Shown here piece by piece: positions 3,758-27,582 of a stretch of 36,208 nt of DNA. The stretch covers positions 1 through 36,208 of the forward strand of contig JTLS01000060.1 in the NCBI GenBank assembly GCA_000826855.1. The letters run 5' to 3'. The translations under genes were made by a program, and so were the position numbers. The notes under the pieces were generated by a model. That model did no database searches. It saw nothing but the letters and a program-made list of their open reading frames with translations, and was not told the DNA's origin. The stretch comes from Basidioascus undulatus (Eukaryota). Numbering within the stretch: the first letter of the stretch is position 1; each line of letters begins with the position of its first letter.

Positions 3758-6700
3758 ATGAGCCACCCTCCGCTCTCCACGCTCGTCCGGCAACACCTCC
3801 TCCCCAATGGCGCGCCCTCCTCCGCACGAGAAGATGCTTTCATCGAAGACACAACTGAATTCGCGCAGTCCATCTTGGACACCCACTTGACGTTTTTTCC
3901 GGGCGGGGCGGGGGCTTTGGATGGGCGCGGGGAGGCGGGGCGGCTGAGGGAGGTGGGGGACCAGATCCGACAGCGGTGTGAGTCCCCCTTTCGCTGTGTT
4001 ATCCCCCGAGCGCAAGAAGAAGGCTGAATTGGGAATGGGTTAAAGTTCTCCGACAAGGGAACACCGCCGACGCCCTGCGCGTATCGAACCTCCTCGGCCG
4101 GCTCGAAGCGCAGCACCCGCGCGTCCTCTCCGACCCCGCAGCACACCTCCAGTTCCTCCTCAGCCTCGCCCTCTCCGCGCCCCCGCCTTCCGATACTCAC
4201 CCCAACGCCCCCACCTCCCGGCCTCCCACCCGCGCCGAACGACCACCCACGCGCGCGAGCGCCGCACACCCCCCACCCGCGCCGCCCCCGCCCCAGCGGG
4301 CGGAGGACACCCCTCCGGAGGGGCTGACGAAGGCGGAGGTGCTGAGGAGGTGGAGGGAGGGGAACGGTGCGTATCCCTGCTGGGGGAGAATGCCTGTGGA
4401 GAGGGAGAGCTTCGGATCCTGAAAGGTACACTACTTCCCAGACTCCACCCCCACCCCCGCCCCCGCCCTCCTCCGCGACGTGGTCTACATCCTTCAAGGC
4501 ATCGACGGCGCACATGTTCGCTTCTCCTCCAGCACTGACGCCGCCGAAGTGGGCATGCTCATATCTTTCGACTCCGTGCGTCCCGTTCCATTGCATCTTC
4601 CCGCACCCTAGCTTGATCGCCCTCCCCCACCCATACGCAGAATACCCGCATCCCCCGCCCCACATTCGACCTCATCGTCCGGCTCTCAGAGCTCGGATGG
4701 CTGTACAAGCGCGTCTCTGCGTTCCTGCGCCCGTCTCCGTCCACCGAACAGGGGCAGGGGCTCATCGCGCAGGTGCGTTCCCTCCTCCCCGCTGTCTCCA
4801 CCTCCTCCTCTCTCCCTCTTTCCCTCTTCCTCTTTTTCCCCTCGCCGGCCGATGAGAAGGTACTGAAACAAAAATGTGGATCGCGACAGTCCCTCTCGCA
4901 CCACATCCAAGCGCACCTAACCGACTACTACCGCCTCATCGCCGTGCTCGAGTCGCAGCTGTCGCGCCCGGGCGTGCGACCCGACGCTGCGCTCACGCTC
5001 GGCCGGCTCGGCGTGTGGACGGAGGAATGGAGGTTGCGGATGAGGATGATGAGCGCTATTGTTGAGGGCGCCGCAGGTGCGTCGTTGCTTCCGGGGTGTG
5101 GGGCTGGAGGTGTGGTGGGGAAGGGGGAAGCTGATGCGTTTTGGGAGGGCAGATGCGCACGGCGGCGCGCTCGTTAGTTTGATCCACGGATACACGGACA
5201 ACGGCGATCCCTTCATCCGCAAATTCACCGCCTCGCTGCTCGAAGAGGTCCGTCCCCTCGCCTCCCTCCCCTTGCCTCCTCCCCTTCTCACTCAACCCCC
5301 ACACCACCTGCCTCCCCGCTCAGGTGTCCAAGCCCTTCTTCCACTCCCTCCACACGTGGATTACCTCCGGCGAGCTCCTCGACCCCTTCGACGAGTTCTT
5401 CGTCGCCCTCAACCCCGACTTCTCGTCCTCCGCCCCCTCCTCCTCCCTCCCTGCTCCAAGCTCCTCTTCCATACCCAACGTTGCCGATGCACAGAACGGG
5501 GCGCCTGCGGGCGCGCAGGAGACGGGACGGATATGGGAGAACAAATATGTCGTGCGGGACGGTATGAGACCAAAATTTGTCGGGGAGGGGTTTGGGAGGA
5601 AGGTGCGTTCTGGGAAGGGGGGGAAAGAGAGAAAGGGAGGCTGATGAGGGTGGGGTGTGGACGGGACGGGTGGACGAGGGCAGATCTTCTCGACGGGGAA
5701 GAGCTTGAACTTTATCCGGTACTCGTGCAGGGACGAGGACTGGGTGTCGACGAGGAACAAGCTGTCCTCCGCCGATAAAGGTCCGTCCATCCCCGTCCTC
5801 CTCCCCTCCCATCCTTCCCCTCCTCTCTTTCGCTGAAGCCTCCCTTCCCTTCCCGTCCTCTTCCTTCCCGCTTCCCTGCCATCCGTCACCCCCGCTCCTT
5901 CCTCGCCCTTCCCCGCTCCTTCCTCGCCCTTCCCCGCCCGTCCACCGCCCCCCCCCACACAGTCCTCAAGTACTCGGACATCCCCTCGCTCGAGCGCTCG
6001 ATCGACGTGGCGTTCTCGATCGCGAGCCAGCGCCTGCTCGAGGTCCTGTTCGACAAGTTCCGGCTACTCGACCACCTCGCCGCCCTCAAGCGGTACCTCA
6101 TGCTTGGGGCGGGGGATTTTATCGATATATTGATGGAGTCGCTAGGGTGCGTTCCATACTCCTACAGAGAAGAAGGCAGAGGCGGAGATGGAGGGAAAGG
6201 AGGCAGAAACTGATACAGATGGACGCTTCCAGCCCCTCCCTGGCCCGACCCGCCAACACCCTCTACCGCCACAACCTAACCGCTACGCTCGAAGCGGCCG
6301 TGCGGGGGTCGAACGCGTCCTTCGACGACCCCTCGATCCTGCGGCGGCTGGACGCGCGCATGCTCGAGTACAGCCGCGGCGAGATTGGCTGGGACGTGTT
6401 CACGCTCGAGTACCGCGTCGACGCGCCGCTCGATGCCGTGCTCGACCCCGAGGCGATGCGCGGGTACAGGAAGGTGTTCAATTGGCTTTGGAGGTTGAAG
6501 AGGGTCGAGATGGAATTGGGCAGGGGGTGGAAGAGGGCGGTCGTCGGGAAGAGGACGTTCTTGAAAGTACCGGGTGGGTGGAGCGGTTTTGTTTCGGGCG
6601 GTTTTTTTTTTCTTCCTTTGCCATCCTCCCCTTTCCCACCTTTTCCTTCCCTTCCCCTTCCTCCCGTCCTTCTCCTCGTCCCATTCAATTCCTCCCGTGC

Positions 6701-7479
6701 TCCCGGTCAACGCCGAACTGACGCCAATGGCGGTGCTCTCCAGAACTCGACCACGACTGGCACCAAGCGCGCCTGGCGATGGCGGAGATGATCCACTTCG
6801 TGCGGCAGCTGCAGGCGTACGCGCAGCTCGAGGTGATCGAGTGCAGCTGGGCCGCGCTCCTCGAGTTTGCAAACAAGCGCGAGGGCGACCTGGACGCGCT
6901 CATCGCCGCCCACCGCGAATACCTCGACCGCATCGTGGGGAAGGTGCTGCTCCTGGGTGGGAAGGGCCGAGGGGTGCGTCCTTCGGATGAGATGAAGGGA
7001 AAGGGGGGAGGAGGAAGCGATGGCTGATGAAAGGTCGGGGGGGATAGGACGAGATGCTCCAGCGCATGCGGAAGCTGCTCAGAATCATCCTCGAGTTCCG
7101 CGCAGCAACGGTACGTCCTTTTCCCCGATCCCCAGGTTCTTGTCGCTCACGTCCCGTTTCCCTCGCACAGGACGACCTCTACGCCCTCACTCTCTCACTC
7201 TCCTCGACCCTCAACCCGCACCCGCCCTCGCGTTCCTCAACCCCCTCCACCACCCACCCCGACGCGCCGGCAGGGTCCGACGAGGCGCTGCACCGCGCGC
7301 GCACGCAGGTCGCGCGCTCCGCGGGAGAGTTCCAGGAGCTCGCGCTCCAAGTCGTGCTCGGCCTGCAAGCGCACCCGGATCTGGACGTTAGGTTTTTGGC
7401 CGTACGCTTGGGGTTCAACGCGTTCTATCGGAAGGGGGCCACGGCTGCGGGAGGGAGCGGGGGTGGAGGAGGGAAGTAG
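3758..7479 (+). CDS. SPC98: Gamma-tubulin complex component 3 (Spc98/Alp6/GCP3), multi-exon
   Basis: Spliced exons read LLRDVVYILQGIDG, SELGWLYKRV, QSLSHHIQAHLTDYYRLIAVLESQL, GGALVSLIHGYTDNGDPFIR, IFSTGKSLNFIRYSC, HLAALKRYLMLGAGDFIDILMESL, LARPANTLYRHNLTATLEAAVRGSNA, RRLDARMLEYSRGEIGWDVFTLEYRVDAPL, EMIHFVRQLQAYAQLEVIECSW and FLAVRLGFNAFY. These are GCP3 hallmark motifs. ATG 3758, TAG ending 7479. Confidence 0.95.
5890..5937. repeat. 21-bp tandem repeat (about 2.3 copies) in a polypyrimidine intron of GCP3
   Basis: CCCCGCTCCTTCCTCGCCCTT occurs twice in tandem. Confidence 0.8.
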
Positions 7480-7669
7480 GGGGATGCACACATGCTTTCG
7501 ACGTGACTGCGTTCGGGGGCTGCTGGCTAAGTCGGGATGGGCCACGTTGCTATCACCCTCAATATACACAGCGGGTTCTCCCGAGCGAGCACGCGCCGTG
7601 TCCTGAGGTACCCAGCTTTGAGAGTCTTCAAATTGTTTGTAAGTCAGGCGCCTGACACAAGTTGTGCCT

Positions 7670-8260
7670 TTATAGCCCTGCGCAACTCCTGCCCCGCAGC
7701 GACATCAGATGTTTGCGCCTGTACCCCGATTGAGTTGGAGACGCACTCTTCTCGTGCATGTCCTTGAAATCCTCCCTCGCGTCCTCAGACAATGCCTTCT
7801 CAGCCTCGGCGCGAGGAACGACCTCGTACAACAGCAGTTCGAAGCGGCGAGCGTCTCCACGTACGGGCCGGAGGCGGATGAGGAGCGCCTGCTTGAGGAA
7901 GTTGTCCAGGCTCTCGCGGAGTTTCAAAGCCCAGAAGATAGCCACGTGGAACGCGTTCGTGTGCTTCGCGCACCACCGGCGGAGAGCAATGTGGACTGGC
8001 GCCTCAATATCGTTGCGTTGGCACCAGGCCTTATGCTTCGGCCAGCTCGGCGCGCTGGCATTCGACAGAGAAGTACTGGGCTTTAAGTAAAGAGAAGGAA
8101 GTCAGAAATGCGAGGAAACTGTCCGTATTGTGAGGGACAAGGCCCAGCAAACGTTGAACTTGCGACCTCCCTCCCGAGCTGGCTTCAGGCAGTGCTCGCA
8201 GTGCGAGAGGGGTTTGAGTGATCCGAATTTGCCAGGGGTAGAGGTCGCAGCCCCGCTTTC
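7670..8260 (-). pseudogene. MYND-type zinc-finger protein pseudogene, copy A (boundaries approximate)
   Basis: Minus strand reads SHCEHCLKPAREGGRKFNVC, then an intron remnant, then KAQYFSVECQRAE, a +1 frameshift, and WPKHKAWCQRN. This is the MYND CxxC...YCSxECQxxxWxxHKxxC pattern with Cys replaced by Phe and a frameshift. Downstream reads KQALLIRLRPVRGDARRFELLLYEVVPR. Confidence 0.75.
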
Positions 8261-10949: not shown

Positions 10950-11540
10950 CCCGCCTCAGTCCCCGCTCTGTATCTCAAACAGTCTGAAGACGTACATTTC
11001 TGTCGAGAAGCTCCAAACTCTCCAAAAAGTCTGGTCCACATCGCCCAGTGTCTTCTCCTCCTCGTCCCGAGAAATGATCGCGTAAGAGGACGGCTCGAAG
11101 TGGCGGGCGCCTCCCTCCGCTGACAGGGTGCGAGGCGGATGAGGAGCGCCTGCTCGAAGCAGTTGTCGGGCTTTTCGTGGAGCTCGAGGAACAGGCACAC
11201 TACAAGGTGCAAATTGTCGAGGCGCTAGATAGCCCACTTGCGGAGCGCGTTCCAGAATGGCGCGAGCTCGGGGTCGGCGCGAGTGGCCGCGGTGCGCTTG
11301 CAGGTACCCTTGTGCGAAGGCCAGTCTGCGCGCTGGCATTCGACCGGGCAGTAGGAATTTGATAGTGAAAGGGAGTCTCAATGATCTCAGGACATTGTTC
11401 TGGGGTTTGGAGAAGGGGGAGGAAGCGCACCGAGCTTGCAGTGTCCGCACACGTTGAGCTTGAGACCATCCTCCGGCGCCGGTTTGAAGCACTTGTAGCG
11501 CCTTATGTGTGCTTTGTGCAAGCCGGTAGTACCAGGGCTG
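10950..11540 (-). pseudogene. MYND-type zinc-finger protein pseudogene, copy B (boundaries approximate)
   Basis: Minus strand reads RRYKCFKPAPEDGLKLNVCGHCKL, then an intron with donor gtgcgc and an acceptor reading CAA instead of CAG, then SYCPVECQRADWPSHKGTCKRTAA. The first Cys codon is CGC. Downstream EQALLIRLAP is frameshifted into AEGGARHFEPSSYAIISR. Paralogous to copy A. Confidence 0.8.
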
Positions 11541-12023: not shown

Positions 12024-14684
12024 TCAACGCTCCGCAGCTGTAACCACAGCAGGCACAACCAGACCTCTCCCGCCCTGATGCCACCGGTACGCGAGCGACC
12101 TCCGCCGCTTTGCTCGCTCCTCCTCGACGTCACCGCCGCGCTTCGCCCGCGCGAGCGCACCGCGCATGATCGTCCGCAGAACGCGCTGGTAATCCGAGGG
12201 CAGAGTAGCCATGCAGACCTCTAGAATGGCAATGGGACTTAGAATGAAAGGGTCCGGGGACGGCGCGAAGGGAAGACGCACCGAAAGTGCGTATGAGCAC
12301 CTCGCATGCTTTCGTGATGCGCGGGTCGGAGAATGGGGATTTGTGTTTGTCGAGGACAAGGACGAGGTGGAAAGATGGTTGGAGGAGAAAGGGGCCGAGA
12401 ATGAAGGGCGAGTAGGCGAGACCTGGGTCCGACGAAAGCACTCTTTCGGCCGCCTGCAGTGCCTCCCTCCGTTCAGCAAGCGATCGAGTCAAATGGCAAG
12501 AAGCATGAGGAGTACCTCCGCGACCTTCACGGCGTGCTCCGTCGCTTCCTGTTCTGACGCACTCATCTCACCCGATACCCAAAGCTCCGCCACCGCGGCC
12601 TCGTCCATGAGAAGCACCGGATCCCAGCCCCCGGGGGTCCCAACCCTGTCTAACAGCAGCCGACACGCATGCAGCCCGAGCGCAGCGTACTCTATGCCCG
12701 CTCCGCTATCACCGCCGCTGCCAGCGAGCTGCGCAAGGCTCATAGCGTAAGCGTCGAGGTGCGACCGAATCTGGGCCTTCGCGGGCGCAGCGACCGAAGC
12801 GCCGCCGCCGCTGGCTAATTTGATGAGAGGGTGCGAGAGGGCATGATGCAGATCGAGAAGCATTCCGAGGATCGTGCAGAGTGGGAGGAGAGCGCCGAAA
12901 AAGTCGGGGGAGGACGCGTGGACGGTCGGGCCGCGCGGTCGGGAAGTCGAAAGTTGGGTAAAATCGCTCGAGGAGGATTGCCAGAGGTTCTCGGGAGCAG
13001 GATGGAGTAGGGTCTGGCACTCGCTGTCGAGGAGGACGAGCGGCCGGTTGAACGCAAGGCCGAGAATGCGGTCAACCTGCGAGAAGCGCAAGGGAAATTA
13101 AATGGGCGTGAAGTGACAGCGAAGGAGGAGACCCACCATGTAAAGTAGCCAGAAAGTCCTTCTTCGCTCTGCTCGCTCCTCCTCGCCCATCGCGGCTCCC
13201 GCCTGCTCGACCTCGCGCCCAAGCTGGAGCTCCTTCGCGAGCATCCAAGCGCCCGTCCACCAGCGCAGGCTGACGCCCTTGTACTCGCTCGCGCTGAGGA
13301 CGGTTCCCAGCTGCACGTACGTGATCACGTCGTCGAGGCTGCCGCCGCCGCCGGACGGCAGGTCCTCGCCCTCCTGCGTCGGCCGGATGGCGGTCACGCC
13401 GTGCTGGAGCGGTTGGAGCGCCGAGACGCAAAGGTCGAATAGCGTCTGGATCATGCGCGCCCGGAGGACCGGAGACGCGATCAGCACGCCGTCGTCACAG
13501 TTGTACGCGCCGACGCAGAGCATCGCGTAGAGGAGCGTCGGCCGCGTCTTGCGCGGAGACGTCGGGTGGAGGATCGAGCATGGCCGAACGAGGTAGGCGA
13601 GCACTTGTGGCGGGTGTTGGAAGTAGGCGTCGAGGAGCCTGGAGGCGAGGGCGGGAGAGATTGAGGGCGAGGAGGAGGATAGGGTGGGGAAGAGATCGTG
13701 GAGGATGGGATAGCCCGATGTGTGGCCATCTGCTGAAAGGGGAGAGGCCTTTGCGACCGGCGAAAGGGAGGCTGTTGATGAAATAACGTTCAGCGGATCC
13801 CAGCATAAGATAATTGAGACCCAGCAATACGCACAATGTGGTTCGGCAGGTTGAAGCTGTTGCTGCAGCTGGTGGTGAGGGCTCGCTGGTGTGCTGAACG
13901 AGAAGTCCCAGGCCAGCAAGTTGATGCCGGAATCTGAGCGAGCAGGATGTTAAAAAAAATATCGGCCCAGGAATCTCACCCAACTCACTTTGCGCGGGAT
14001 CGAGGACATCGGACAAGTCGGGAGCGGCGAAGGGGAAGTTGAATGCAAGATTCGCAGGCGCGGGCTGAGCAGGGGTCGGCAGCTGAGGCGCCGGCGGTGG
14101 AGGCGGGGTGGGTAGTGGTTGTTGGTTGAGGTGAGGTTGAGTCTGGGGCGGGATGACCGATTGTTGAGCGTTGGTGTTCGAGGGGGAAGGGGAATCGCTC
14201 AGCGAGCTCGACGGGGAAGGCGCCGGCGGCGCCGCACCCGAAGGCGCTGTCGTCGAAACCCTGGCTGCTCTAGCGGCAGCGTCTTTTGTTGACGCTTTTC
14301 CGCGCTTCTTACGAGCGCGAACGTATTCGCATACGACCTTGGCGTCTGTGGAGGAATTGCTTCAGTAACGGCCTCGATCGGGAGGGCACACGCATACATT
14401 CAGGACAGACCTTGACACCGCTGACATGGGTGCAATCCATCGCTATTTGCCCTCCAAACAGCACCTTGTCACCTCTAGAGGACCATCTGACAGAGCGCAG
14501 ACCGTGAGCGCTCTCACCACTTGACTCGGCTCGCATTGCACGCATCGCACGCTCGAGAGATGCGCTGCCGCTTTGGCGGCGACGGTTGCGCCGGGTCTGC
14601 GCCGCTATCGCGGAGCAGCGATGCGGCGCTTGGTGGCTGGGAGGAGTGTAAAGGCGCAGATTGGGTAAGTGAAGCGGGAGACAT
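12024..14684 (-). CDS. xlnR-like: Zn(II)2Cys6 transcription activator of the XlnR/Xyr1/AraR family, multi-exon
   Basis: The spliced DNA-binding domain reads [47 protein letters not shown]. The middle region reads LDDVITYVQLGTVLSASEYKGVSLRWWTGAWMLAKELQLGRE...[42 protein letters not shown]. The C-terminus reads ATEHAVKVAEAAERVLSSDPGL...KACEVLIRTFEVCMATLPSDYQRVLRTIMRGALA...YRWHQGGRGL. All are colinear with XlnR as recalled. No disabling lesion seen. Confidence 0.92.
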
Positions 14685-15414
14685 GATGGTGGTTAAGGTC
14701 AAGCCAGATCCCAGGATCTCGGAGCGCAATTGATGGGCAGATGACCTCCGCTGCATGAACTGCAACTCCGACTGGTGTGCGGCCGGTCCGGCTTCCGATC
14801 AGGTCGCCGGTCAAACCTTGAGATGGCCATGGGCTGTCTCTAAGGACCTGACTTTTGTGCAAATAAAAGATTCGCATGGCTGTCTTTCCTAAGCTTTCGT
14901 GTTTCGATTGGGTAGCAGAGCCCGAACAAACGTGGATAGACATACACCGGGAGGCCGCGGGAGGCGAAGTTGTTGAAGAGCCCTTCTTCGCCAAGGAGTC
15001 ACGCTGGAGTATCCCGTCCCATCTTGCAACACCCTGGGTCGATCTATCTGAGTTGCATTCCGCTGGAAAGCTTGGGGGGAGTACAGATGGGAAAATAAAC
15101 TTCGACTCTTCTTACTCATCCGAACGCTAGTAGGAAACCGTTGAAAGCCGCGTCAGTCCGGCTGGGTCAGCCACGTCGGATTGTTACCGCCTCTTGGCTG
15201 AACTCATGATAGAACTTGTTCACATGTGCCAGTGGCATACGAGATACATATTCCTTGGTGAAGGTACTGGCAGACGCAGGAATATAGAAAGTGCAACTTG
15301 AAAATCCGAATGAAACTACTACTACAGAGACGCAGTCCTTGCGCTTTCATCGCCCTTCGAACTCGAGACTTGACTTCGTTACCGTTACTCAACCCTTGGC
15401 TTGTTCCAGGGGCC

Positions 15415-18253
15415 CTACTCCTTGTGCATCTCGCGATGCTCGACCTCGGGCTTCTCGGTCTCCGCCGTGGAACAACTAGCCTCGATGTCGTCGGCGCCCC
15501 GAGCCGCGAGCGCGCCGGCCACGCCTTGAACACCGCCCTGCGCCATGAGCCGCTGGAACTCCTTCTCCATGTTCCAGGCGAACATCGAGTCGGAAGCGAA
15601 GAGGAGGTCTGTGAGGAAAGCACCGTCAGAGTGAGTTTACTCCAGCGGGTTTGAAAGGTGCAGCCTACCCATCTCCTCGAGACTGCGCTTCGCCGTCTCG
15701 GGCCAGAAGCAGTAGATGACGGGGATCTGTGTATCGGTATCAGCTTTGTAGTGGAGTGGGGGTGACAATTACACTCACATATAGCAAGTTCAGCCCCGCG
15801 TACAGGTAGAAAGTGTTCTCTTGGACCGCATCGAACATGACAGGCGTGAAGAGCGTTCCTGCGCCGAACCCAACAGCCCACCCCGCTTCGATCGGGTATT
15901 CGAATCGTGATCAGCAAGACTCAAAAGCAGCGCAATATATATATTACATATGACTCACCAACACCGAAAGCGTTGCCCTTGGCACGGACCTATAGGAAGG
16001 CGTCAGCGTCGGTTGGATGGTTGGCTTCTTCGAGGAGGCTGACTTCGGTAGGGAAGATCTCAGCAGGACTGCATAAAAAGTGTCAGAGTCTTTTCCTGTT
16101 TGAAGAGCAGAAGACATGAGAAACGGCTCACAGAATGAACGGGACCATGAGCCAGGTAGAAGAGAAGACGAGGGTGAAGAGGAAGATGAACGCGGAAGAT
16201 CTGAAAGCGTTTCCATGGAACATCAGATACATCTTTCGCCTCATGAGTAAAGGAGCTTTAGACGCACGCAGCTCCGTACTGTGCCGCCTTGTCCGGGTTG
16301 TCGACGAGAAGGCGAGACAGTCCGCCGCTGAGGAACAGGCAGACGGCCTGACCGATGGCGCCGTAGAAGAGCGTCTTGCGTCGGCCGAGCTTGTCAATAT
16401 TGAAGGCATTTATCAAGGTGCCTAAGCGCCGATGGAATAGGCCCGTCAGTCGGAGAGCTTGGAGAAGGCACTTTCTGGTTGAAGTGACGACTGACCGAGG
16501 ATGCCGACGGAGTTGTTCAGAGCAGAAAGCCACTGCGCCTTATCCTCCGAGTAGCCAGCTTGGGAGAAGCTGTGAAATTATGTCAGCTGGAAGCTAGGGT
16601 TGGAACGAGACAATTACGGCGGAGGTTTACATCGTCGGGGAGTAGATAGTGGTCGCCGTGATGCCAGTGCCTGTCCGCACCGAACTGAGCATTTGGTTTT
16701 TAAAGCGGCGGTGAGCCCGTTGCGTACCAAACTGCATAAGAATTTGGATCCTGGAAAGCTCAATGGCATTAGGTGTGTAGACACTAAGCGAAGCCTGAGA
16801 GCACGTACCACGCCGCCAGCTGCACCCTGCGAGCCATGTGCAGCTTCCCCCATTTGTAACCCAAGAGCATTCCCAAATAGCTGTTCCGGATACCGCCGGA
16901 TCGTTCGCTCTCAACCATAGTGATGATGTCGTTGTACTCGCTCTTGACCGCCGGGTGGTTCTCGTCGCCGTCTCCACGAAGACGCGTCAGGATGAAGAGC
17001 GCCTCGTCTGCGCGACCCTGCTTGACGAGCCAGCGGGGCGATTCGGGGAGGAACCAGACCGATACGAAGAGGATAAGAGCAGGAATGACCTGGCAAGCTT
17101 GGGCTGAAGAATACGTAAGGAATCGCCAGCGTGTTTCACCGTCACTGAGGTGCCCATTTCACGTACGCAGCCGCCACCGGATCGGACCACGGCCGTCGCC
17201 GGAGAAGCTCATGCCATATCCAAGCCAGTCTGTTGGAAGGTCATGCCATTTGAACAGAGGACGAATGAACCACCTTATACCCTTGACTCACAGGCGACGA
17301 AGATGCCGCCGTAGTTCAGCAAGAAGATCAAGCACTGCAGCGGTAAATTGGATTAGCAACCTGGTAAAGACAGCCGTAATACGTGTACTTGACATACAAT
17401 CATGCGGCCTCGCTCTTCAGCAGCGGCAACCTCCGCCGACCAAGCGGGGGTAACCTGCCCAGGACTCAAAGTAAGCGTGCGCTGGTGAATCTGGATACAT
17501 TTAGTGAACGTACTGTCATCAAATACCCAACTCCTTGGCCCGTGATCACTCTAGCAACAATCATCCACTCCACTATGGAAACGGCAAGATGGGTGGTCAG
17601 CGTCTTCCACGTCCACACGAAGTTGAGTGTGCCGGCTGAACATACCATTCTGAGCGGACGCTTGGAGGGAACCCCCGAGACTAGTAAACGGAAAAGTTGA
17701 GTCAGTACGCTTCTATTGTTAGCTTCATTAAACTTACATGCACCACAGGCAACCAAGCGCGAGCGCTCGCCTGCGTCCGATTTTGTCTGCAAGCCAACCA
17801 CCGCTGCAGGCCCAAAGTTAGACGCCGCAACATGTGAGGCGACGAGCGCAATTGAGGTACCTAAAGCCGCCCACTGTCGGTCTATATCTCGTCAGAACAT
17901 AGCAGTCTGAGCGTGAGAGAGATTTTACTTGCCCAAGGCGCCCAGGTAGTACACGCAGACGACGCCACCCAGCTTGCTTGGTTTCCCTTCAAGGCCCATG
18001 GTCCTATTGGAGTAGAGTGTCAGCCAAGTCCATTCAGAGTACCCTCAAATAGACGGACTCGACGTAGTCCTGTTCAAAGTCGGTCAGCGTGAAGGGGAGT
18101 CCGAAGAAAGTGAAAGCTCACAGGAGAGATGTTGACGCCCCCCATGAGTCCTTGTGCATATCCCTCAAAAGAAATACTGCAGGCGGCAGCCGCATTCAGA
18201 GCGAAGAGTAGTTTTTTAGCGGACAGTGTCCGCCAGGCTTCGAAGATGCCCAT
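15415..18253 (-). CDS. MFS sugar porter (sugar:H+ symporter family), many exons
   Basis: ATG 18253 gives MGIFEAWRTLSAKKLLFALNAAAACSISFEGYAQGLMGGV. Further motifs: GGVVCVYYLG, GGWLADKIGRRRAL, WMIVARVITG, PESPRWLVKQGR, IDKLGRRKTLFYGAIGQ, AEIFPTEV, PETAKRSLEEMDLLFASDS. TAG at 15417-15415. Confidence 0.93.
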
Positions 18254-18357
18254 CGTCGCGACGGCTTGCTGGATGAGGCTGTGCGAGAGGCGCGCGGTCG
18301 CGTCGTGTAGAGAGTTAGGTACGTTTGCGCAAGGGGTCGTGAGACCGTAGAGGAAAT

Positions 18358-18396
18358 GTGGGGGAAATGTGGGGGGAAATTGTGGGGTAAGCGGGG
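18358..18396. promoter_or_regulatory. Four tandem CreA/Mig1-type SYGGGG boxes upstream of the sugar porter; also a canonical G-quadruplex pattern
   Basis: GTGGGG at 18358, 18369 and 18382 (each preceded by AAAT or AAATT) and GCGGGG at 18391, 105-143 bp upstream of the ATG. Confidence 0.6.
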
Positions 18397-18537
18397 CACT
18401 TTATCAAGGAAAGGCAAAGGAAAGGGCACGGGTCGGATCATCGATCACCGAGACAAGGGCAGTACCCCCTTGCGCAAGAGGCAGCATCTGCACCGCTTCG
18501 GCTGATGGTGGTCCACGCTGGTTTGGCTATACGTCAC

Positions 18538-18763
18538 TTAGCCGGGCAGAAGATCCATGTGAGAGCGGAAACCTGGCGGAAAATACGATGGTGTACTGCT
18601 ATCAGCCGCAAGATCGTCGCCCGAGCTCGCCAAATGTCGCCTTCCCAAGCCTTCCCAACGTTTCGGGCCCGGCAGCGGCTTCGCCTTTGTGCGGGCAGAA
18701 GGATCTTAGTGGCATTTACCCGGAGTACATAGGAAGGCAGTAGCATGGCTAAGGTCGGTTAAA
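18538..18763. promoter_or_regulatory. Cluster of XlnR/AraR-type sites in the sugar porter promoter
   Basis: CGGCTAA on minus (18538-18544), CGGGTAAA on minus (18715-18722), GGCTAA on plus (18747-18752), CGGTTAAA on plus (18756-18763). These match the GGCTAR and CGGNTAAW consensus sequences. Confidence 0.55.
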
Positions 18764-19362
18764 TCGACCCTGACACCGATTGCAGACGTTGTGTGGAGTA
18801 CGTATACTGCGAGGTCACGGGGTTTCGAGCAGCTTAAAGCGACAGGGCGTTGCCTGAACTTCGTTTTGATTTCGAGACGACCGTCTGTGGACCGCTCAGG
18901 CTGGCAGCAAGGCCTTCGGTCGAAAACTTTTGAAAAAATTTACTTGCTCTCTGAGAACCACTGCATTCAATACACTGCCGGCGGGCAGTGTTGACAGGCA
19001 GTAAAGGAGATGCACGACACACTTGTCGAGTTTCCCTGAAGGCGTTGAAGCCCGAACCTGAGCCAATGCCTGCGAAAGTAATATCCGCCGGGGAGAAAGC
19101 GCGTATAAGTAGTACAGGTGGGTTCTTGTCAATAAAGTCAGAGTAAAGCGGAATCTGTCATTACAGATCGATGAGCGAGAACGTCGTTGCTGCGCTTGGG
19201 AGTTCGCATGGCGGCAACTTGCTGCACGCTCATGAAGGGCAAAGTAGTGACAGGCGTTCTACAGTGGTACAATACAAGACACACTGAGGTTATGAAGCAG
19301 CGAAATACTCCTTCTAAGGTGAAGATACGGGACAAACTTTTGGTACACAACAGCGGGCGCCC

Positions 19363-21246
19363 TCAGTTCCGCCCTCCCTTCCCATCGTAGAACGAGATGA
19401 CAGCCTGGAGAGAGGTTTGGTCAGAGATATGATATTACTACATGAAAATATCGGAGTACTCACGTATTTGCCCGTCCTCGTCCACGTTCCATTGCTCTCC
19501 TCCACGACCTTCCGCATCTGCTCCTCGCTCGACAGCCCGACACACACATCCGCTTTGCACGTCCGAAGGCTGAGCACGCGGATACCATCCCACCTGTTAC
19601 CCGTCTCGTCCCCCTCGTCCGCACCAATCGCCTTCGGGAACGACGTTGTGTGGGGCCACATGCCGTCCGCAACAAGCTTGCGGTAGTTGAGGTCTCCCTT
19701 GAAGATGACGAGGTCGGACTTGGCGAGCTCTGCGTAGAGCGACGGCGCGAGGGCTTTCAACCGCCAGAAAGAGCCCTGAGTCTGCAGAATTGAAGGCGAC
19801 AGTCAGAATTGGCTGTAGAAGAAGAATACATCCATGTCGGGCTTACAGTCCAGAAGCCGTCGGAGTGCAGAGAAATTTTGCCGCTGTCGAAGAACGTCTG
19901 CCACCGCGAGCGCAAGAAATCGATCTCGGGACGCCGTACGAAGACAGCAGGGTCCTCGAGCAGCGAGAAGAGCGACTTGACGTCCCCAACGAGCACGTCC
20001 GAGACGAACCACGGGAAGTTCTTCGGGTGAAGGACGACGGAAGACGCGTAGCCGGCCTCGAGGAGGTAGGTCGCGAAGATGAGGTCGGCGTAGAGCTCGA
20101 AGCCTAATAATTATGGGTAAGTTATCAATAAGTCCTGTGAAAAATGAAGCAAACAGCTGGAAGCGCACCTGCGTTGTCCAGCACGATGTCGATCCGACCG
20201 CCTTGCAGGCCCTTCATGACATTCCAGACGCTGTCCGTGTCATCGGAGACAATGTTCTTGCGCGATTCTGTGAGATATTGTCAACACTGGGAAAATTCAA
20301 GCCGAAGCTTGAGTGATCGCGTACCTTGGATGGCGGCCTTGCCCTGCAGCTTCTTGATGTCCTCGAAGGACAGGTTCGTCAACAACGACAAGTCGGTACC
20401 GTTGCCCCACAGCGCAATTTGAAGCATGTCGTCCTTTGCGGGAATGGCCGTCAAAACAATTTACAACAAGGAAATACTTCGAACAATATTCACGAAAAGT
20501 AGGCTCTGGGCCACCGGATCAGCCGCAGCCGCCTTGTGCTGCTCAAGCTCGCCGACCAACTCGGTGTAGCGCGCGGCGAGCTCCTCGACGGCCGCCTTCG
20601 ACTGGATGAACGCCGCGTCCTTCTGGCGCGCGAAGATGTCGTAGCGGGACCAAAAAGCGCCCGCGAGAGCGAAGAAGGTCCGGAGCAATCGATACATGTA
20701 ACACTCTGCAGGAAACGTCAGCAGAGGACAGAGGCTGCACGACAGAATGTCAAGGTGGCCCAAGACTCACCCGTGAAGAGCCATGGTGCATCGGCCCAGC
20801 GCGCGGTCGCAAGGAACTTCAACTCGGCGTTGTAAGAAGCAATGTCCTCGGCGCCGTCGTCTTCGAGAGGACTGGGGGAATGTAAGTAAGAAGTAAGAAC
20901 GAGCTGCAACATTGAGGTTGCATTTCAGGATACACCTCAGAAGGTCGTTGGCCTCGATCGCCTTCGCGACATTCTCGATTCGAGCAGCGAGATTGCGACC
21001 CTTATCCTCGTCCTCAGCATAGAGGGCCCCCTCGTCGACAGTCTTGAGGACATCCGCCGCGGCCTGCCGAATGATGACCGACCAGCGCGTGGTGGCAGTG
21101 ATGTGCGCGAAGCTGGTCGTGTCCCCGGTGTGGGAACCGGCTGCACATTACAGGCATCAGTGCGCTGTTGAATAAAAGTAGCGTACACAATTGAAATACA
21201 TACCAACCTCGCAGTCGGAGGGAATGAACTTGATCGGGCGAGTCAT
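19363..21246 (-). CDS. ARMT1-like: DUF89/ARMT1-family metal-dependent sugar-phosphate phosphatase (YMR027W-like damage-control phosphatase), multi-exon
   Basis: ATG 21246. Motifs: SFAHITATTRWSVII, WADAPWLFTECYMYRLL, YDIFARQK, IALWGNGTDLSLL, RIDIVLDNAGFELYADL, LHPKNFPWFVSDV, DLVIFKGDLNYRKLVAD, LRTCKADVCVGL, WTRTGKYAVISF. TGA 19365-19363. Confidence 0.95.
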
Positions 21247-21892
21247 GGGCGACGAAGCGAATTGAACGGTGAGGAGTGTTTGCGATGGCAAGAAACGATG
21301 TCGAAGCAGATGGCGCTGTCGGATCAAGTTCAAGGTGGTTCGGAACTCCGGTTCCCAAATTTCAGGGGAAATGGCGGCACTTCGGAACTGAAGCTCGAAA
21401 AAATGGGGCAAAAGCCGGACGCTGTGAGGCAGGAGGGTATTTACCCTCAATTTACCCGGCTGCCGACTTGCAGCCTTGCAGCCCGTCACTCAAAGCCGAC
21501 TGCTCATTGACGTTCGGGCCGACCTTGAGGAAGTAACGCCAGAAGCTTCAATTCAGCTTGCCGATAACCCAACACATGATCGCTTCCTCGCGGTGACACG
21601 GTTGTGACTGGCGCCCTGAGCCACGAGCCCGGCGACATGCCGCCGCCGCCATGCGTGCAACCGCCACTTCTTACGATGTTGAGCCCCACCAGGAAGCCAA
21701 TCTTGTTCCGAGCGGCTTACCGGTATATGCCGAAATACTGTCGGACGCCGGTGGCTACAGGACCGGCTCCTCTTAAGGACTCTGACCGTCTCTTCCTTCC
21801 TTCCCTTCTCCACAAAAACACTCTCGATCTGCACTTCGCCTACCTCTACTTAATACTCTACATCCAACCGCATCTACCTCAGCTCCACCAAC
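21247..21892. promoter_or_regulatory. 646-bp divergent (bidirectional) promoter between the phosphatase and the kinase
   Basis: Head-to-head ATGs at 21246 (-) and 21893 (+). Contains ATTTACCCGG (21450-21459; CGGGTAAA on minus), TTCGGAACT twice (21339, 21381) and many CGG/CCG triplets. Confidence 0.7.
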
Positions 21893-24133
21893 ATGGCCCC
21901 TGTTGCAACCGACTCTGTTAACCCCAATCTCATGGTGGAACCTGCTGACGCCAACGAGTCGTACGCGCTGGACATGACTGTCCTTGGAATGAACAGTGGC
22001 ACTGCGATGGACGGTATTGGTGAGCTTCTCCTTTCTATTTGGTAGAAGATCCTTAGGAAGTTCTGATCGCTTCTCTATGGCTTCAGATTGCGCTCTATGC
22101 CGTTTCCGTCAGAAGACTGTCGACGCCCCTCTCGAGCTGGAGATCTTGAAGGTATGTCTTTCGAAGCAGACACTTCGGGCCTCTTACGTAGTGGCTAATT
22201 AATTGATTCGACAGTACGACGAGCTCGAAGTTCCGCAATGGATCAAGAAACCCATGCTTCGCATGCTGCAAGAAACTCGCACGACTCCGTCTGAGATGTC
22301 GCAGCTCAAGTCCGTCTCGCCAGAATCCCCTTGCCTTCATAAGCTATTGAGAATGTCAGAAGCTTACTGGTGCCCTGATGCTCAGTGTGCAACTTGGCTT
22401 CATGTTCTCGGAGGCTACAAAGACGTTCAGCGAGAAGCACAACGTTCCTCTGAAGAGCATCGACCTCATCGGGTTCGTGACCTTTCTACAACTTGTCACC
22501 TCCGAGAGCACAAGAACTAAAGCTTATACTCATACTATGACTTCAGTTCGCACGGCCAGACGATTTGGCTGCTCTCCATGCCTAAGGAGGGTGAGACCCG
22601 CTCGGCCATGTGCCTCGGCGAGGGTACGGTCATGGCTGCGGAGACCGGCATTACGAGTGAGTTTCATTGAGTGATACGTTGGACGCCAACTGCAGGTTGA
22701 TCCAATTTAAATCTGCACAGCTGTGACCGACTTCCGGATGGCGGAGCAGGCAGTCGGACGGCAAGGCGCACCGCTTGTTGGCGTATGTCGCTCTCGTTCA
22801 GCTCGTTTTATAATTCAAATATCTGATCAGATGCCATCTTCTGGTTACCAGTTCTTCGATGGTCTCCTCCTCCACCACCCCACGAAAACGCAGATCTGCC
22901 AGGTACGCGATTCCCTGTCTTGCCATGCAACTTGCGGTCAATGCTGACTTACATTATGCGGAATGCAGAACATCGGTGGCATGTCCGTCTCTATCTCGTT
23001 ACTCCCATCCCAATTTTGAGCCAGTGGCTGACAAGGGTCGTCGCAGTGCCAACGTGTGCTTCATTCCCCCGGACAGCGAGGGCGGCATTGACGCTATGTG
23101 GGATTTCGACATGGGACCTGGTCCGTCTTCCTTTACTTCCGCATTTTTCTCGCTTTCAGACCCCGTACTGAACCGGGCTTGATGCGGATCGCAACAGGCA
23201 ACATCTTCATTGACGCCGCCGTGCGTCACTACACCAACGGCGAGCGGGTGAGTTGAGTTGATACGGGGACCTAGGCCCTCGAACCTTTCACAAATTTTAG
23301 TAAACTGACACCCGCAACACAGGAATACGACCGGGATGGCGAGATGGCTCGGCGCGGCACTGTTTGCCAGGAGGTGGTCGACAACTTGTGCGCAACGTCT
23401 CGTCTTTTATATTCTGCAAGGACGGGACTAACCGGAAAAGCAACTTCACACAGCCTCAAGAACCACCCCTACATTCAGCACAATCCTCCGAAGACGACCG
23501 GCCGCGAGGTCTTCGGCGACACGGACGCTTGGGAGCTCATCAAGCAGTGCGAAGCACGCGGTTGCTCGCCCGACGACACTGTCGCGACCATCACTCGCAT
23601 TACGGCGCAGAACATTGTCGACCACTACAGACGCTACGGTCCCCCCGAGGATCAGATCTCTGACATCTACATGGTGCGCCCGCCCCTCCTTTACCGAGCG
23701 TCTTGCCCAGTCCCAACTTGAACAGTGCTGACCTACAACATCTCTGCAGTGCGGCGGCGGCTCGCTTAACCCGGCCATCACGTCCTACCTCCAGTCTGAG
23801 TTCCCGAACTCCCGCATCTGCTCGCTGGACGAGGTCGGTGTCCCCTCAGCCGCCAAGGAGGCTGTGACCTTCGCGATGCAGGGCATGGAGGCCATGCTCG
23901 GCCGCGCGCTCGTCGTCCCCTGCAACTCTGACACCCTCACGCCCAACACCATCACCGGCAAGATCGCGCCGGGCTTGAACTTCCGCAAGCTCATGGCGCA
24001 GTCCGTGCAGTTCGGCGCGAGCGGGAGCGGCGTGGTGAAGGGCAAGGAGAAGGGCCTGCCGATGGTCCGGGATCTGAAGCTCACGAGCAAGTACTACTGG
24101 CCGGATAGCGTGGCGGAGAAGTATGCGGCTTGA
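21893..24133 (+). CDS. lgk-like: Levoglucosan kinase / anhydro-N-acetylmuramic acid kinase (AnmK, UPF0075) family 1,6-anhydro-sugar kinase; 12 introns
   Basis: Spliced product reads [176 protein letters not shown] and [10 protein letters not shown]. Colinear with Lipomyces levoglucosan kinase as recalled. All introns are GT-AG and the frame is intact. Confidence 0.95.
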
Positions 24134-24955: not shown

Positions 24956-27582
24956 ATGCCTGAAAAAGCCCAGCCTCACCCTTTCAATACCCGTGCAATC
25001 TCGGCAGACGAGCCTTCGCACGCACACACCATGCGATCAACGTCCTCCGAGCCGCAATGCCATCCGAACGACCGCGCTCAAACTGACCGATCGTTTTCGA
25101 GTGCAGTACGGCGTCCGGGTGCAAGTCCACTCAGCCGTAGCCATCGGCCACCCCCGTCTCAGCAGCAGCAGGGGGCGTCGATTTCACGACAAGATGCGCC
25201 GCAGTTCTCGTATCAATCGCAGCACGGCCAACCACCTCCAATCAGCAGGGGCCGCAGCAATATCCGGCTTCTCGAGGGGGGTCTAGAAGATCTGGGGAGC
25301 TTCGGCGAACGAAGTGAGGCGGGTGCGGGAGCGCAGACGCCTGCCGCCGAACGTCGCTGGATGGACGTACGCGCTCCAGATGCAGCATTCGCCCGAGCTG
25401 AATCGTTCTGGGGGATCTGTGCGTATAACAGTTAGCTTGTGAAGGTCGGGCATGTGTGGAGCTCATCCCTCCGTTCCACCGGTACCAATCTCAGGGCTGA
25501 TACAAGAAACCAATCTGGGGCATTGGAGGAGTCGTACGTCTGTCTCTCGCATTGGCCATTCCATTCCTGAGTTGCAGTCTGCTGACGACTGGGTTCCGCC
25601 TGGGCGCAAGGCGCCTCACTCGACCGTATCCCCGAGCATGGCCCGCACTCGCTCGTCCCGAGCAGCAGCACCAAGGCGCACGACAGCGGGACGACCGTGT
25701 CGGAGGAGCTGGGAGGTCAGGTCGGCGGAAGTCTCCACGACGGCGAGACGTCCGACACGGACATTCCGATTGAGAAACCAGAGTGGAACACCTTGGCTCG
25801 CATTCGCTCGCGATCCCGTGAGCCGCTGGCGGAGTGGCTGGGTACGTGCGGCGTTCGACTCCCCGGTTTGTAGGCACGCTGTTATCTCCAGGCATGACGT
25901 TGCTCGTGATGGTCGGCACCGGGGCAGGCTGCCAGACGACCATCTCGCAAGAGTCGCTTGGTGGGCACAGCAACCTCAACTGGTTAGTCTCTCTATCCCT
26001 TTCCATCCGTTTCCGCCCGGCTCCTTCTGATCCCGTACCGCAGGGCTTGGGGATTGGGCGTGATGAGTGCCATTGTCAGTCATGCGCCCTGCACCGCCTT
26101 CGCGCAGTGCTGATGTTTCGCGCAATTGCAGTACATCGTTGGTGGGATCTCGTGCGTGATTACGACCACCTACTTCTCGTAGTTGGATCCGGACTGACAG
26201 GGAGAAACAATGTGGACATATCGACCCAGCTCTGACGTTCGGACTGGCGCTGTTCCGTGAGTGTCCTTCCGAAAGCCTATAATCTTCACAGCGCTGACCA
26301 GGATCACTGTCAGGCGGCTTTCCCTGGCGAATGGTTTGTTCCGATCATCCTCTTTGTTCGAATGGCGTCCTTTACTTACCAGTCAACGCGTCCGCGCAGG
26401 TCCCGGTATACTGGATCGCGCAAGTCCTAGGCGGCATAACGGGTGCCGCGCTCATTTATGCCAAGTAAGCACGTCCTCTATCTTTACCGACCGACCCCGT
26501 ACTGACAGTGTCATTGGAGCTACTATTGTGTTATCTTGCAATATGATCCAGATCACAAGATTCACGGGACGAACGCGTCGGCTAGCTTGTTCGTTACGTT
26601 GCCGGCGCAGAACGTCGCTACGATGGGGCTGGCGTTCTACCAGTTCGTTCTCAAAAGCTATAGTTTCTGGGCTGACCTGAATTTGTGGGAAAAGGAAAAT
26701 TATTGCTACTGCGGCGCTGGCGGTTATTGTGCTTGCGCTCGGGGGAACCAAGCGATGAGATGAGGAGGTGTATGTACGCTGACGGAAGGTGGTAGGACAG
26801 AACAACAACAACCCTTGTGCTGGGTATGAATTGTAAATTGATTTTAGGGTGACAGTACGCTGATCCACCCGTACTCGTGCTTGGTGCCCTCGTAACCGGG
26901 CTGTTCCTCACAGCAGTCCGTCTTCCCTTCCTTGCATCCCTCTCTATCTTACTCACCACCCCACCCCAAAGTAGATCGACATGAGTCCCGTGTGTCTCCG
27001 GCTGTATTCCCCAGTTGGGTGAGCAGGTTCTGATGAATGTGAGCATGTGAGCAGGGCTGGCTCAGCGGCTACACGATCAACCCCGCGCGGGACCTCGGCC
27101 CGCGGCTGTTCTTGTTAGTGATGGGATATGGGACAGAAGTGCGAAACTTCTTTCCCTTCCTTTTCTCTACCCCGTTAACCCCTTGCACTCACACTCCGAA
27201 TCTGGAGCAGTTGTGGAAGCACGACGAGGTCGGTGTACGTCCTCTCCTCGCGCTGCTGTGACTGTGACGGTTCGCTTACTCGTGCTAGTTCGATGAAGCC
27301 GATATACGGCTGCTTAATCGGCGCCATCCTCGGCTGCTTGGTCTACGACGTAGCGATCTACACGGGCGAGGGGAGGTGCGTCTTCACTCCCTTCCCCATT
27401 CTCGCAAGCGGCTGGGGTTAATCGTTGGTGGTGTGATGGCATCGTTCTCAACTACCCGTCCAACCGGGTCAAAGACACTCTGGGCATAACGCGCGTGCAC
27501 TCGATGGTTCGGGACCGTGATGCGCACGCGCAGGGGACGGGAGGAGGGCGATGTCAGCCAGGCGGAGAAGGGGGAGAAATAG
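24956..27582 (+). pseudogene. Aquaglyceroporin (MIP family, Fps1/GlpF-like), probably degenerate; 3' end approximate
   Basis: Long hydrophilic N-terminus, then REPLAEWLGMTLLVMVGTG, YIVGGIS, GHIDPALTFGLAL, VPVYWIAQVLGGITGAALIY, GYTINPARDLGPRLF and GAILGCLVYD. Lesions: the first NPA reads DPA (26223-26231); the expected acceptor just before it reads AACAA; the conserved TM4 Glu reads Lys; no usable donor or frame at about 26745-26850. Confidence 0.75.

Follow-up and report, generated by a model that had tools for sequence, protein, structure and literature searches.

A conserved porter–phosphatase–kinase gene module in Basidioascus undulatus, probably an undescribed fungal pathway for 1,6-anhydro-sugars

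A group of four genes was investigated in a 36,208-bp stretch of DNA from Basidioascus undulatus (contig JTLS01000060.1, positions 1 to 36,208), referred to below as the window. The four genes code for a Zn2Cys6 transcription factor, a sugar porter, a DUF89 phosphatase and a kinase of the AnmK/levoglucosan kinase (LGK) family. The window appears to carry one copy of an old, conserved fungal module for the uptake and activation of 1,6-anhydro-sugars, a reading to which we assign a probability of about 0.6. The porter, the phosphatase and the kinase probably form an undescribed pathway for sugars formed by burning plant matter. An earlier note, made from the sequence of the window, had proposed a self-contained anhydro-sugar cluster of these four genes. 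The genes, their contiguity and their linkage were borne out; the kinase, however, was assigned to a sister clade of the known levoglucosan kinase, and the regulator family was not conserved.

The window DNA was intron-rich and eukaryotic, with short stop-to-stop open reading frames (ORFs) on either strand. A Pfam scan of 116 stop-to-stop ORFs from 11.5–25 kb of the window revealed four families only: Fungal_trans, Sugar_tr, ARMT1-like/DUF89 and AnmK. Gene models were obtained with a splice-aware protein-to-DNA aligner and a simple exon chainer, guided by homologues, and the four spliced models were open throughout, from ATG to stop (Table 1). The ORF scan detected no Pfam family in the intergenic gaps of 730, 1109 and 646 bp. 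The four genes were intact and contiguous with no Pfam-recognisable gene between them, and the phosphatase and kinase genes were divergent (head-to-head), both as the earlier note had described.

The conservation of this arrangement was surveyed in metagenome contigs of the Joint Genome Institute (JGI), which were scanned with 12 aligned fungal LGK homologues as the query. Among the 80 loci returned, 47 encoded an LGK-type kinase (best-segment identity to the window kinase 47–77%) and 33 were ordinary bacterial AnmK loci (33–39% identity). The 47 LGK-type loci were reduced to 39 groups at ≥90% nucleotide identity, and neighbours were counted in the 25 groups whose flank upstream of the kinase reached 1.3 kb or more. 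In six long loci, Pfam recognised genes of fungal type, including Fungal_trans and an Rsc7 subunit.

The first divergent neighbour of the kinase was a sugar porter in 16 of the 25 groups, DUF89 in six and neither in three, one of which had a porter 2 kb downstream. A porter came next beyond DUF89, as in the window, in three of the six DUF89 groups (L019/L020, L034, and L036); the contigs of two others (L032 and L033) were too short to show the next gene. L034 and L036 matched the window in all four positions and orientations: TF(-) porter(-) DUF89(-) kinase(+), where TF is the transcription factor. The head-to-head spacing of DUF89 and kinase was 486–894 bp in seven related loci. In L019, about 2.4 kb of ORFs without assignment (5704–8148) separated the porter from DUF89.

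As a positional control, porter genes were counted in 25 representative loci: the stretches up to 6 kb upstream of the kinase, 120 kb in total, contained 19, and the remaining 174 kb contained one. None of the 33 bacterial AnmK-type loci had a porter or DUF89 neighbour. Gene adjacency exceeds chance, because the same neighbours recur around kinase homologues elsewhere. An absence of conserved linkage, which the earlier note had considered, was contradicted by these metagenome loci, in which both porter–kinase and porter–DUF89–kinase linkage was widely conserved.

These counts bear on a very unlikely explanation, namely that the gene order was inherited without a common function, or that the cluster was moved by horizontal transfer for unrelated reasons. 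The lack of a conserved regulator family, the housekeeping genes on the flanks of the window and the lack of a common promoter motif would agree with it. However, a porter or DUF89 stood beside the kinase in 22 of the 25 groups, with kinases only 51–77% identical (best segment) to that of the window; the linkage was specific to the position beside the kinase; and the kinase, porter and DUF89 have diversified together.

Two kinase exons matched Pfam AnmK (PF03702) with 42.8 and 29.3 bits (cut-off 24), and relatives of the window kinase reached 230–283 bits. The exon at 23275–23718 aligned with the LGK of Lipomyces starkeyi in the PDB (E 1.5e-28, about 70% identity over 70 residues), and the window kinase shared 71% identity with Saitoella complicata P0001. 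The kinase model carried an N-terminal ATP motif of the GxxSGTSxDGID type at residue 32 and DFDMGPGN at residue 223, the latter corresponding to the DFD catalytic-Asp motif (DFDTGPGN in LGK). Both motifs were aligned with LGK in the relative P0001, and the CGGG motif was also retained in the window kinase. The catalytic Asp corresponds to Asp212 of LGK, in agreement with the chain numbering in the LGK alignments. With its catalytic motifs intact, the window kinase is likely to be active. According to the available part of PMC10570956, the AnmK/LGK family is known for one chemistry only, in which ATP is used to open a 1,6-anhydro ring and a sugar 6-phosphate is formed.

A kinase tree of 48 rows (IQ-TREE, ultrafast bootstrap/SH-aLRT, the latter a likelihood-ratio branch test) split into 9 and 39 rows with a support of 100/100. 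Clade I consisted of the window kinase, S. complicata P0001, all six DUF89-linked kinases and one short contig. Clade II contained every directly porter-paired kinase and the proteins of Aspergillus, Penicillium, Talaromyces and dothideomycetes. The solved L. starkeyi LGK gave 758.2 bits to P0003 of clade II and 548.7 bits to P0001 of clade I; by these scores, the LGK sequence itself being absent from the tree, the characterised enzyme appears to lie nearest to clade II. The window kinase would then belong to a sister clade and would not be an orthologue of the known LGK. The earlier label of a levoglucosan/AnmK-type kinase thus held at the level of the AnmK/LGK family, and not at that of the clade with the characterised enzyme. 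Because the window kinase lies outside the clade of LGK, levoglucosan is no more than one candidate among possible substrates.

Alignment of the two clades showed 14 positions that were fixed differently. The residue after the catalytic Asp was T in clade II, C in eight of the nine clade-I rows and M in the window; other clade-separating positions were located within the GAPL(I/V)(A/G)FF and TAQ(A/N)IV motifs. DUF89 was beside the kinase in none of the 19 clade-II-type groups with enough flank, and it was adjacent to clade-I kinases wherever the flank permitted checking. The kinases L045:6982–8381 and L053:9944–11344 formed a small third group adjoining clade I; L045 had neither neighbour, and L053 had a very divergent porter.

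The porter matched Pfam Sugar_tr (PF00083) with exons of 48.8 and 27 bits in two ORFs. Its model, obtained by spliced alignment to P0241/P0242, de novo exon chaining and a frame check, carried the PESPRWL and PETAKRSLEEM motifs. A word-based homologue search with the porter exon returned two partial proteins. In the porter tree (a quick search), the porters of the window, L019, L034, and L036 grouped together (SH-aLRT 94), separate from the porters paired with clade-II kinases, which had an 11-row core with 100% support.

The phosphatase matched Pfam DUF89/ARMT1-like (PF01937) in three exons, with 71.6, 64.1 and 33.7 bits. Alignment with the solved Schizosaccharomyces pombe and yeast DUF89 structures showed that VLDNAGFELY, FVSD, KGDLNYRK and CKAD were retained. 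The Asp-Asn nucleophile/metal pair, the second metal Asp and the equivalents of Asp363 and Lys401 were present, and the lid Asp (WGNGTDLS) was read off the model only. The roles of these catalytic residues, including the Asp and Lys, follow the accessible text of PMC9062747. The catalytic residues being intact, the window DUF89 likely is an active enzyme. A sugar porter and a DUF89 protein of the YMR027W/ARMT1 type, as named in the earlier note, were thus recovered by domain and signature motifs for the one, and by Pfam and the catalytic set for the other.

In a 49-row DUF89 tree (midpoint-rooted, quick search), all six kinase-linked DUF89s fell inside one 12-row clade (support 100), which also included proteins of Cyphellophora, Aureobasidium, Staphylotrichum, Echria and Diplogelasinospora. 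None of the six was in a 21-row clade whose branching mirrored that of the species and which appears to represent the ordinary copy. The kinase-linked DUF89s of the Pezizomycotina-like contigs thus appear to be a separate paralogue clade. The kinase, porter and DUF89 trees agreed, which suggests two old modules. Module I, the type in the window, would consist of porter, DUF89 and clade-I kinase, and module II of porter and clade-II kinase.

The two modules bear on a simpler explanation, which we consider rather unlikely: that the genes serve the ordinary pathway from levoglucosan to glucose 6-phosphate, DUF89 being only a damage-control or overflow phosphatase for wrong or excess sugar phosphate and not a pathway step. 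The window kinase is about 60–70% identical to L. starkeyi LGK with the motifs retained, and damage control, with a broad range of substrates in vitro, is the role described for DUF89 phosphatases (PDB molecule names; available part of PMC9062747). This explanation is at odds with the 0/19 count of DUF89 on the clade-II (LGK) side, with a lineage of its own for each of the module-I kinase, porter and DUF89, and with the 14 clade-separating kinase positions, one of them adjoining the catalytic Asp, a pattern that points to a distinct specificity.

Salvage of anhydro-amino sugars, either 1,6-anhydro-N-acetylmuramic acid (anhMurNAc) from bacterial walls or anhydro-N-acetylglucosamine (anhydro-GlcNAc), is a very improbable alternative, in which ring opening by the kinase would be followed by removal of the 6-phosphate by the phosphatase. 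The kinase family does include AnmK, and bacterial AnmK followed by the MupP phosphatase is a precedent for the order of kinase before phosphatase. However, clade I scored at most 143 bits to any solved AnmK compared with 548.7 bits to LGK, the transporter is a hexose-type sugar porter, and no amino-sugar enzyme (deacetylase, deaminase or etherase) was found in the window or in the six Pfam-scanned loci.

For the preferred reading, a module for 1,6-anhydro-sugar uptake and activation, the following route is proposed. The dedicated sugar porter of the major facilitator superfamily (MFS) would import the anhydro-sugar, and the clade-I LGK-like kinase would open its 1,6-anhydro ring with ATP to give a hexose 6-phosphate. 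Because the porter adjoins the kinase, directly in 16 of 25 groups and beyond DUF89 in at least three, it is natural to read the pair as uptake and then ring opening by phosphorylation. DUF89, expressed from the shared divergent promoter region, would then act on the sugar phosphate made by the kinase; it may release free hexose if the 6-phosphate is not directly usable, or it may limit sugar-phosphate overload. The adjacent Zn2Cys6 factor would be the likely pathway-specific activator. The analysis showed intact genes and catalytic residues, conserved linkage and joint diversification of kinase, porter and DUF89; the substrate, the order of kinase before phosphatase and the regulation by this factor are inferred.

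Module II, nearest to the LGK that makes glucose 6-phosphate, has no phosphatase. The constant presence of DUF89 in module I and its absence from module II suggest that the 6-phosphate of module I needs removal, for example if it comes from a non-glucose anhydro-hexose, or that DUF89 buffers the load. A more specific proposal, which we put forward only tentatively, is that the clade-I kinase and DUF89 act in two successive steps, a route that would be new for eukaryotes: the kinase would open the ring of an anhydro-hexose, one different from levoglucosan, by phosphorylation, and DUF89 would dephosphorylate the product to free sugar. Galactosan would suit this route best, since galactose 6-phosphate leads nowhere in fungal metabolism. 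Should the route hold, the porters of these clusters would be the first eukaryotic transporters dedicated to anhydro-sugars, and the linked DUF89 clade would provide the first case of a subfamily-III DUF89 with a physiological substrate.

The regulator model was obtained by spliced alignment to P0243–P0261 followed by a model check. It contained a canonical six-Cys zinc cluster, CX2CX6CX5CX2CX6C, spread across exons 1–3; Pfam missed the cluster because it was split over three exons. The Fungal_trans match on the regulator ORF was weak (16.2 bits, under the 23-bit cut-off). Of the seven regulator homologues scanned, six had both Zn_clus and Fungal_trans, and P0243 had Fungal_trans alone. The regulator family was small, with 240 representatives at E ≤ 1e-3 among 1.84 billion. 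The linker after the zinc cluster may resemble that of XlnR.

Other clusters also have an adjacent factor. P0005 (1014 aa, Aspergillus fumigatiaffinis) was a gene model in which an LGK-type kinase had been fused with a neighbouring Zn2Cys6/Fungal_trans factor. Homologues of this factor half, designated TF5, scored 149–535 bits and adjoined the kinase or porter in 20 of the 47 LGK-type loci. L034 and L036 carried TF5 at the position and in the orientation of the window regulator. What places the regulator in the unit is its position, with this positional parallel in other clusters. The kinase-then-factor order of P0005 recurred in L002, L009, L011 and L012.

The 646-bp region between DUF89 and the kinase is presumed to be a bidirectional promoter. 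No significant shared promoter motif was found. Two copies of GGCTAR, the XlnR site, were located upstream of the porter. A palindromic TTGCGCAA core with C/G-run flanks also occurred twice upstream of the porter, at 18325–18336 and 18466–18481, and is a possible factor site. A 12-nt word at 19205–19216, 3' of the DUF89 stop codon, recurred as its reverse complement at 21645–21656 in the DUF89/kinase intergenic region.

Several observations weigh against an anhydro-sugar module of the proposed form. Some concern the regulator and the promoters. The TF part of P0005 gave no match to the window at E ≤ 1e-3, and the window regulator aligned to the related loci only over residues 25–82 (zinc cluster and linker). 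Judged by these comparisons, the window regulator is of a different family from the TF5 of the other clusters, and the regulator family does not appear to be conserved among clusters. GGCTAR was under-represented in the window, with 12 copies compared with 27.5 expected and none between DUF89 and the kinase. The Zn2Cys6 and Fungal_trans parts of what had been called an XlnR-type activator stood (the latter via homologues), and enrichment of the XlnR site did not. The 8-mers common to the cluster promoters were not above chance (31 compared with 22.5 ± 6.3).

The other points concern DUF89 and the survey. The DUF89s of the window and of Saitoella branched outside both the 12-row and the 21-row clades; the window DUF89 could be the ordinary copy of the organism, because it lies outside the linked clade. 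If the kinase produces glucose 6-phosphate, a phosphatase step after it seems futile, and module II does without such an enzyme. The DUF89-linked group L021/L022 had no sugar porter within 10 kb upstream. The related loci were metagenome contigs, the taxonomic spread of which was read from the trees only. In L022, the locus with DUF89 and no sugar porter, an MFS_1-type transporter was present 1.3 kb downstream of the kinase (12604–13635, + strand).

The coordinates of the four genes and of the divergent intergenic region are listed in Table 1. The outer stop codons were at 12024 and 24133, identical to the two ends of the region proposed in the earlier note.

Table 1. Genes and divergent intergenic region of the four-gene group in the window
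Feature	Position	Strand	Description
Regulator, Zn2Cys6/Fungal_trans factor	12024–14684	-	9 exons, about 727 aa
Sugar porter, MFS Sugar_tr	15415–18253	-	21 exons, 539 aa
DUF89/ARMT1-like phosphatase	19363–21246	-	9 exons, 461 aa
AnmK/LGK-family kinase	21893–24133	+	13 exons, 467 aa
DUF89/kinase divergent intergenic region	21247–21892	.	646 bp between start codons

The introns of the four models were 45–77 nt long, mostly 52–77 nt, with GT-AG ends predominating; two regulator introns were shorter than 52–77 nt. Typical introns had a GTRNGY donor, a CTRAC-like branch site and a YAG acceptor. Two GC-AG introns were found, at 17874–17932 and 13339–13383. The latter is doubtful: being 45 nt long and in frame, it may belong to the coding sequence, which would give a regulator of 742 aa.

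Beyond the four genes, the window contained a gamma-tubulin-complex gene, an IQGAP-type gene and Nop53. A MYND zinc-finger exon (11228–11377, - strand) was located just past the 3' end of the regulator, in a gene at positions of roughly 10.9–11.7 kb in the window. An aquaglyceroporin-like (MIP) gene at about 25900–27450 (+ strand), approximately 1.8 kb 3' of the kinase, had GHIDPA and INPAR motifs and a weak Pfam match (E 8e-4). It was considered as a fifth cluster member and rejected, since none of the 80 related loci had a match. With the gamma-tubulin-complex, IQGAP-type, Nop53, MYND and aquaglyceroporin-like genes as its flanks, the four-gene group stands among unrelated genes.

Burning biomass releases great quantities of levoglucosan and related anhydro-sugars, which are also the chief sugars from fast pyrolysis, according to the accessible part of PMC4752346. 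In agreement with the earlier note, no fungal levoglucosan cluster, native transporter or regulator was found in the literature covered, which left out most subscription journals, so that an earlier notice of the two kinase types is possible. As far as this literature was searched, the module II cluster is also undescribed. In the available part of PMC9476349, six kinases were tested, Gal2 was engineered, and transporter mining was termed an open challenge; the words adjacent, cluster, neighbor and upstream did not occur in that part. The conserved kinase-adjacent porters are concrete candidates for native anhydro-sugar transporters. The linkage also sets a DUF89 paralogue and a second fungal clade of LGK-like kinases, itself uncharacterised, in a physiological context that can be tested, and fungal genomics gains a small catabolic gene cluster.

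Comparison with known systems showed both likeness and difference. Bacterial AnmK and MupP follow the same logic of ring opening and then dephosphorylation as proposed for the window, but the phosphatase is a haloacid dehalogenase (HAD) protein and not DUF89, the sugar is another one, and the hosts are bacteria. To our knowledge, no pathway has been assigned to Saccharomyces cerevisiae YMR027W or to Duf89 and Duf8901 of S. pombe. These three proteins (PDB 3pt1, 7t7k, and 7t7n) have the fold family and catalytic residues found in the window DUF89. The bacterial levoglucosan dehydrogenase pathway LgdA-LgdB1-LgdB2-LgdC is clustered, has its own transporter genes, is oxidative and uses no kinase (PMC7676230, available part); like the proposed module it is a clustered anhydro-sugar route, but it is not homologous to any gene of the four-gene group. 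The L. starkeyi LGK (PDB 4yh5, 4zlu, and 5tkr) shares PF03702, the N-terminal ATP motif and the DFD catalytic-Asp motif with the window kinase; LGK appears nearer to clade II, whereas the window kinase is in clade I with a DUF89 neighbour. Module II of Aspergillus- and Penicillium-like fungi resembles the window in its divergent porter and LGK-type kinase with an adjacent Zn2Cys6 factor. It differs in having no DUF89, in its other paralogous lineages of kinase and porter, and in its factor, which is TF5.

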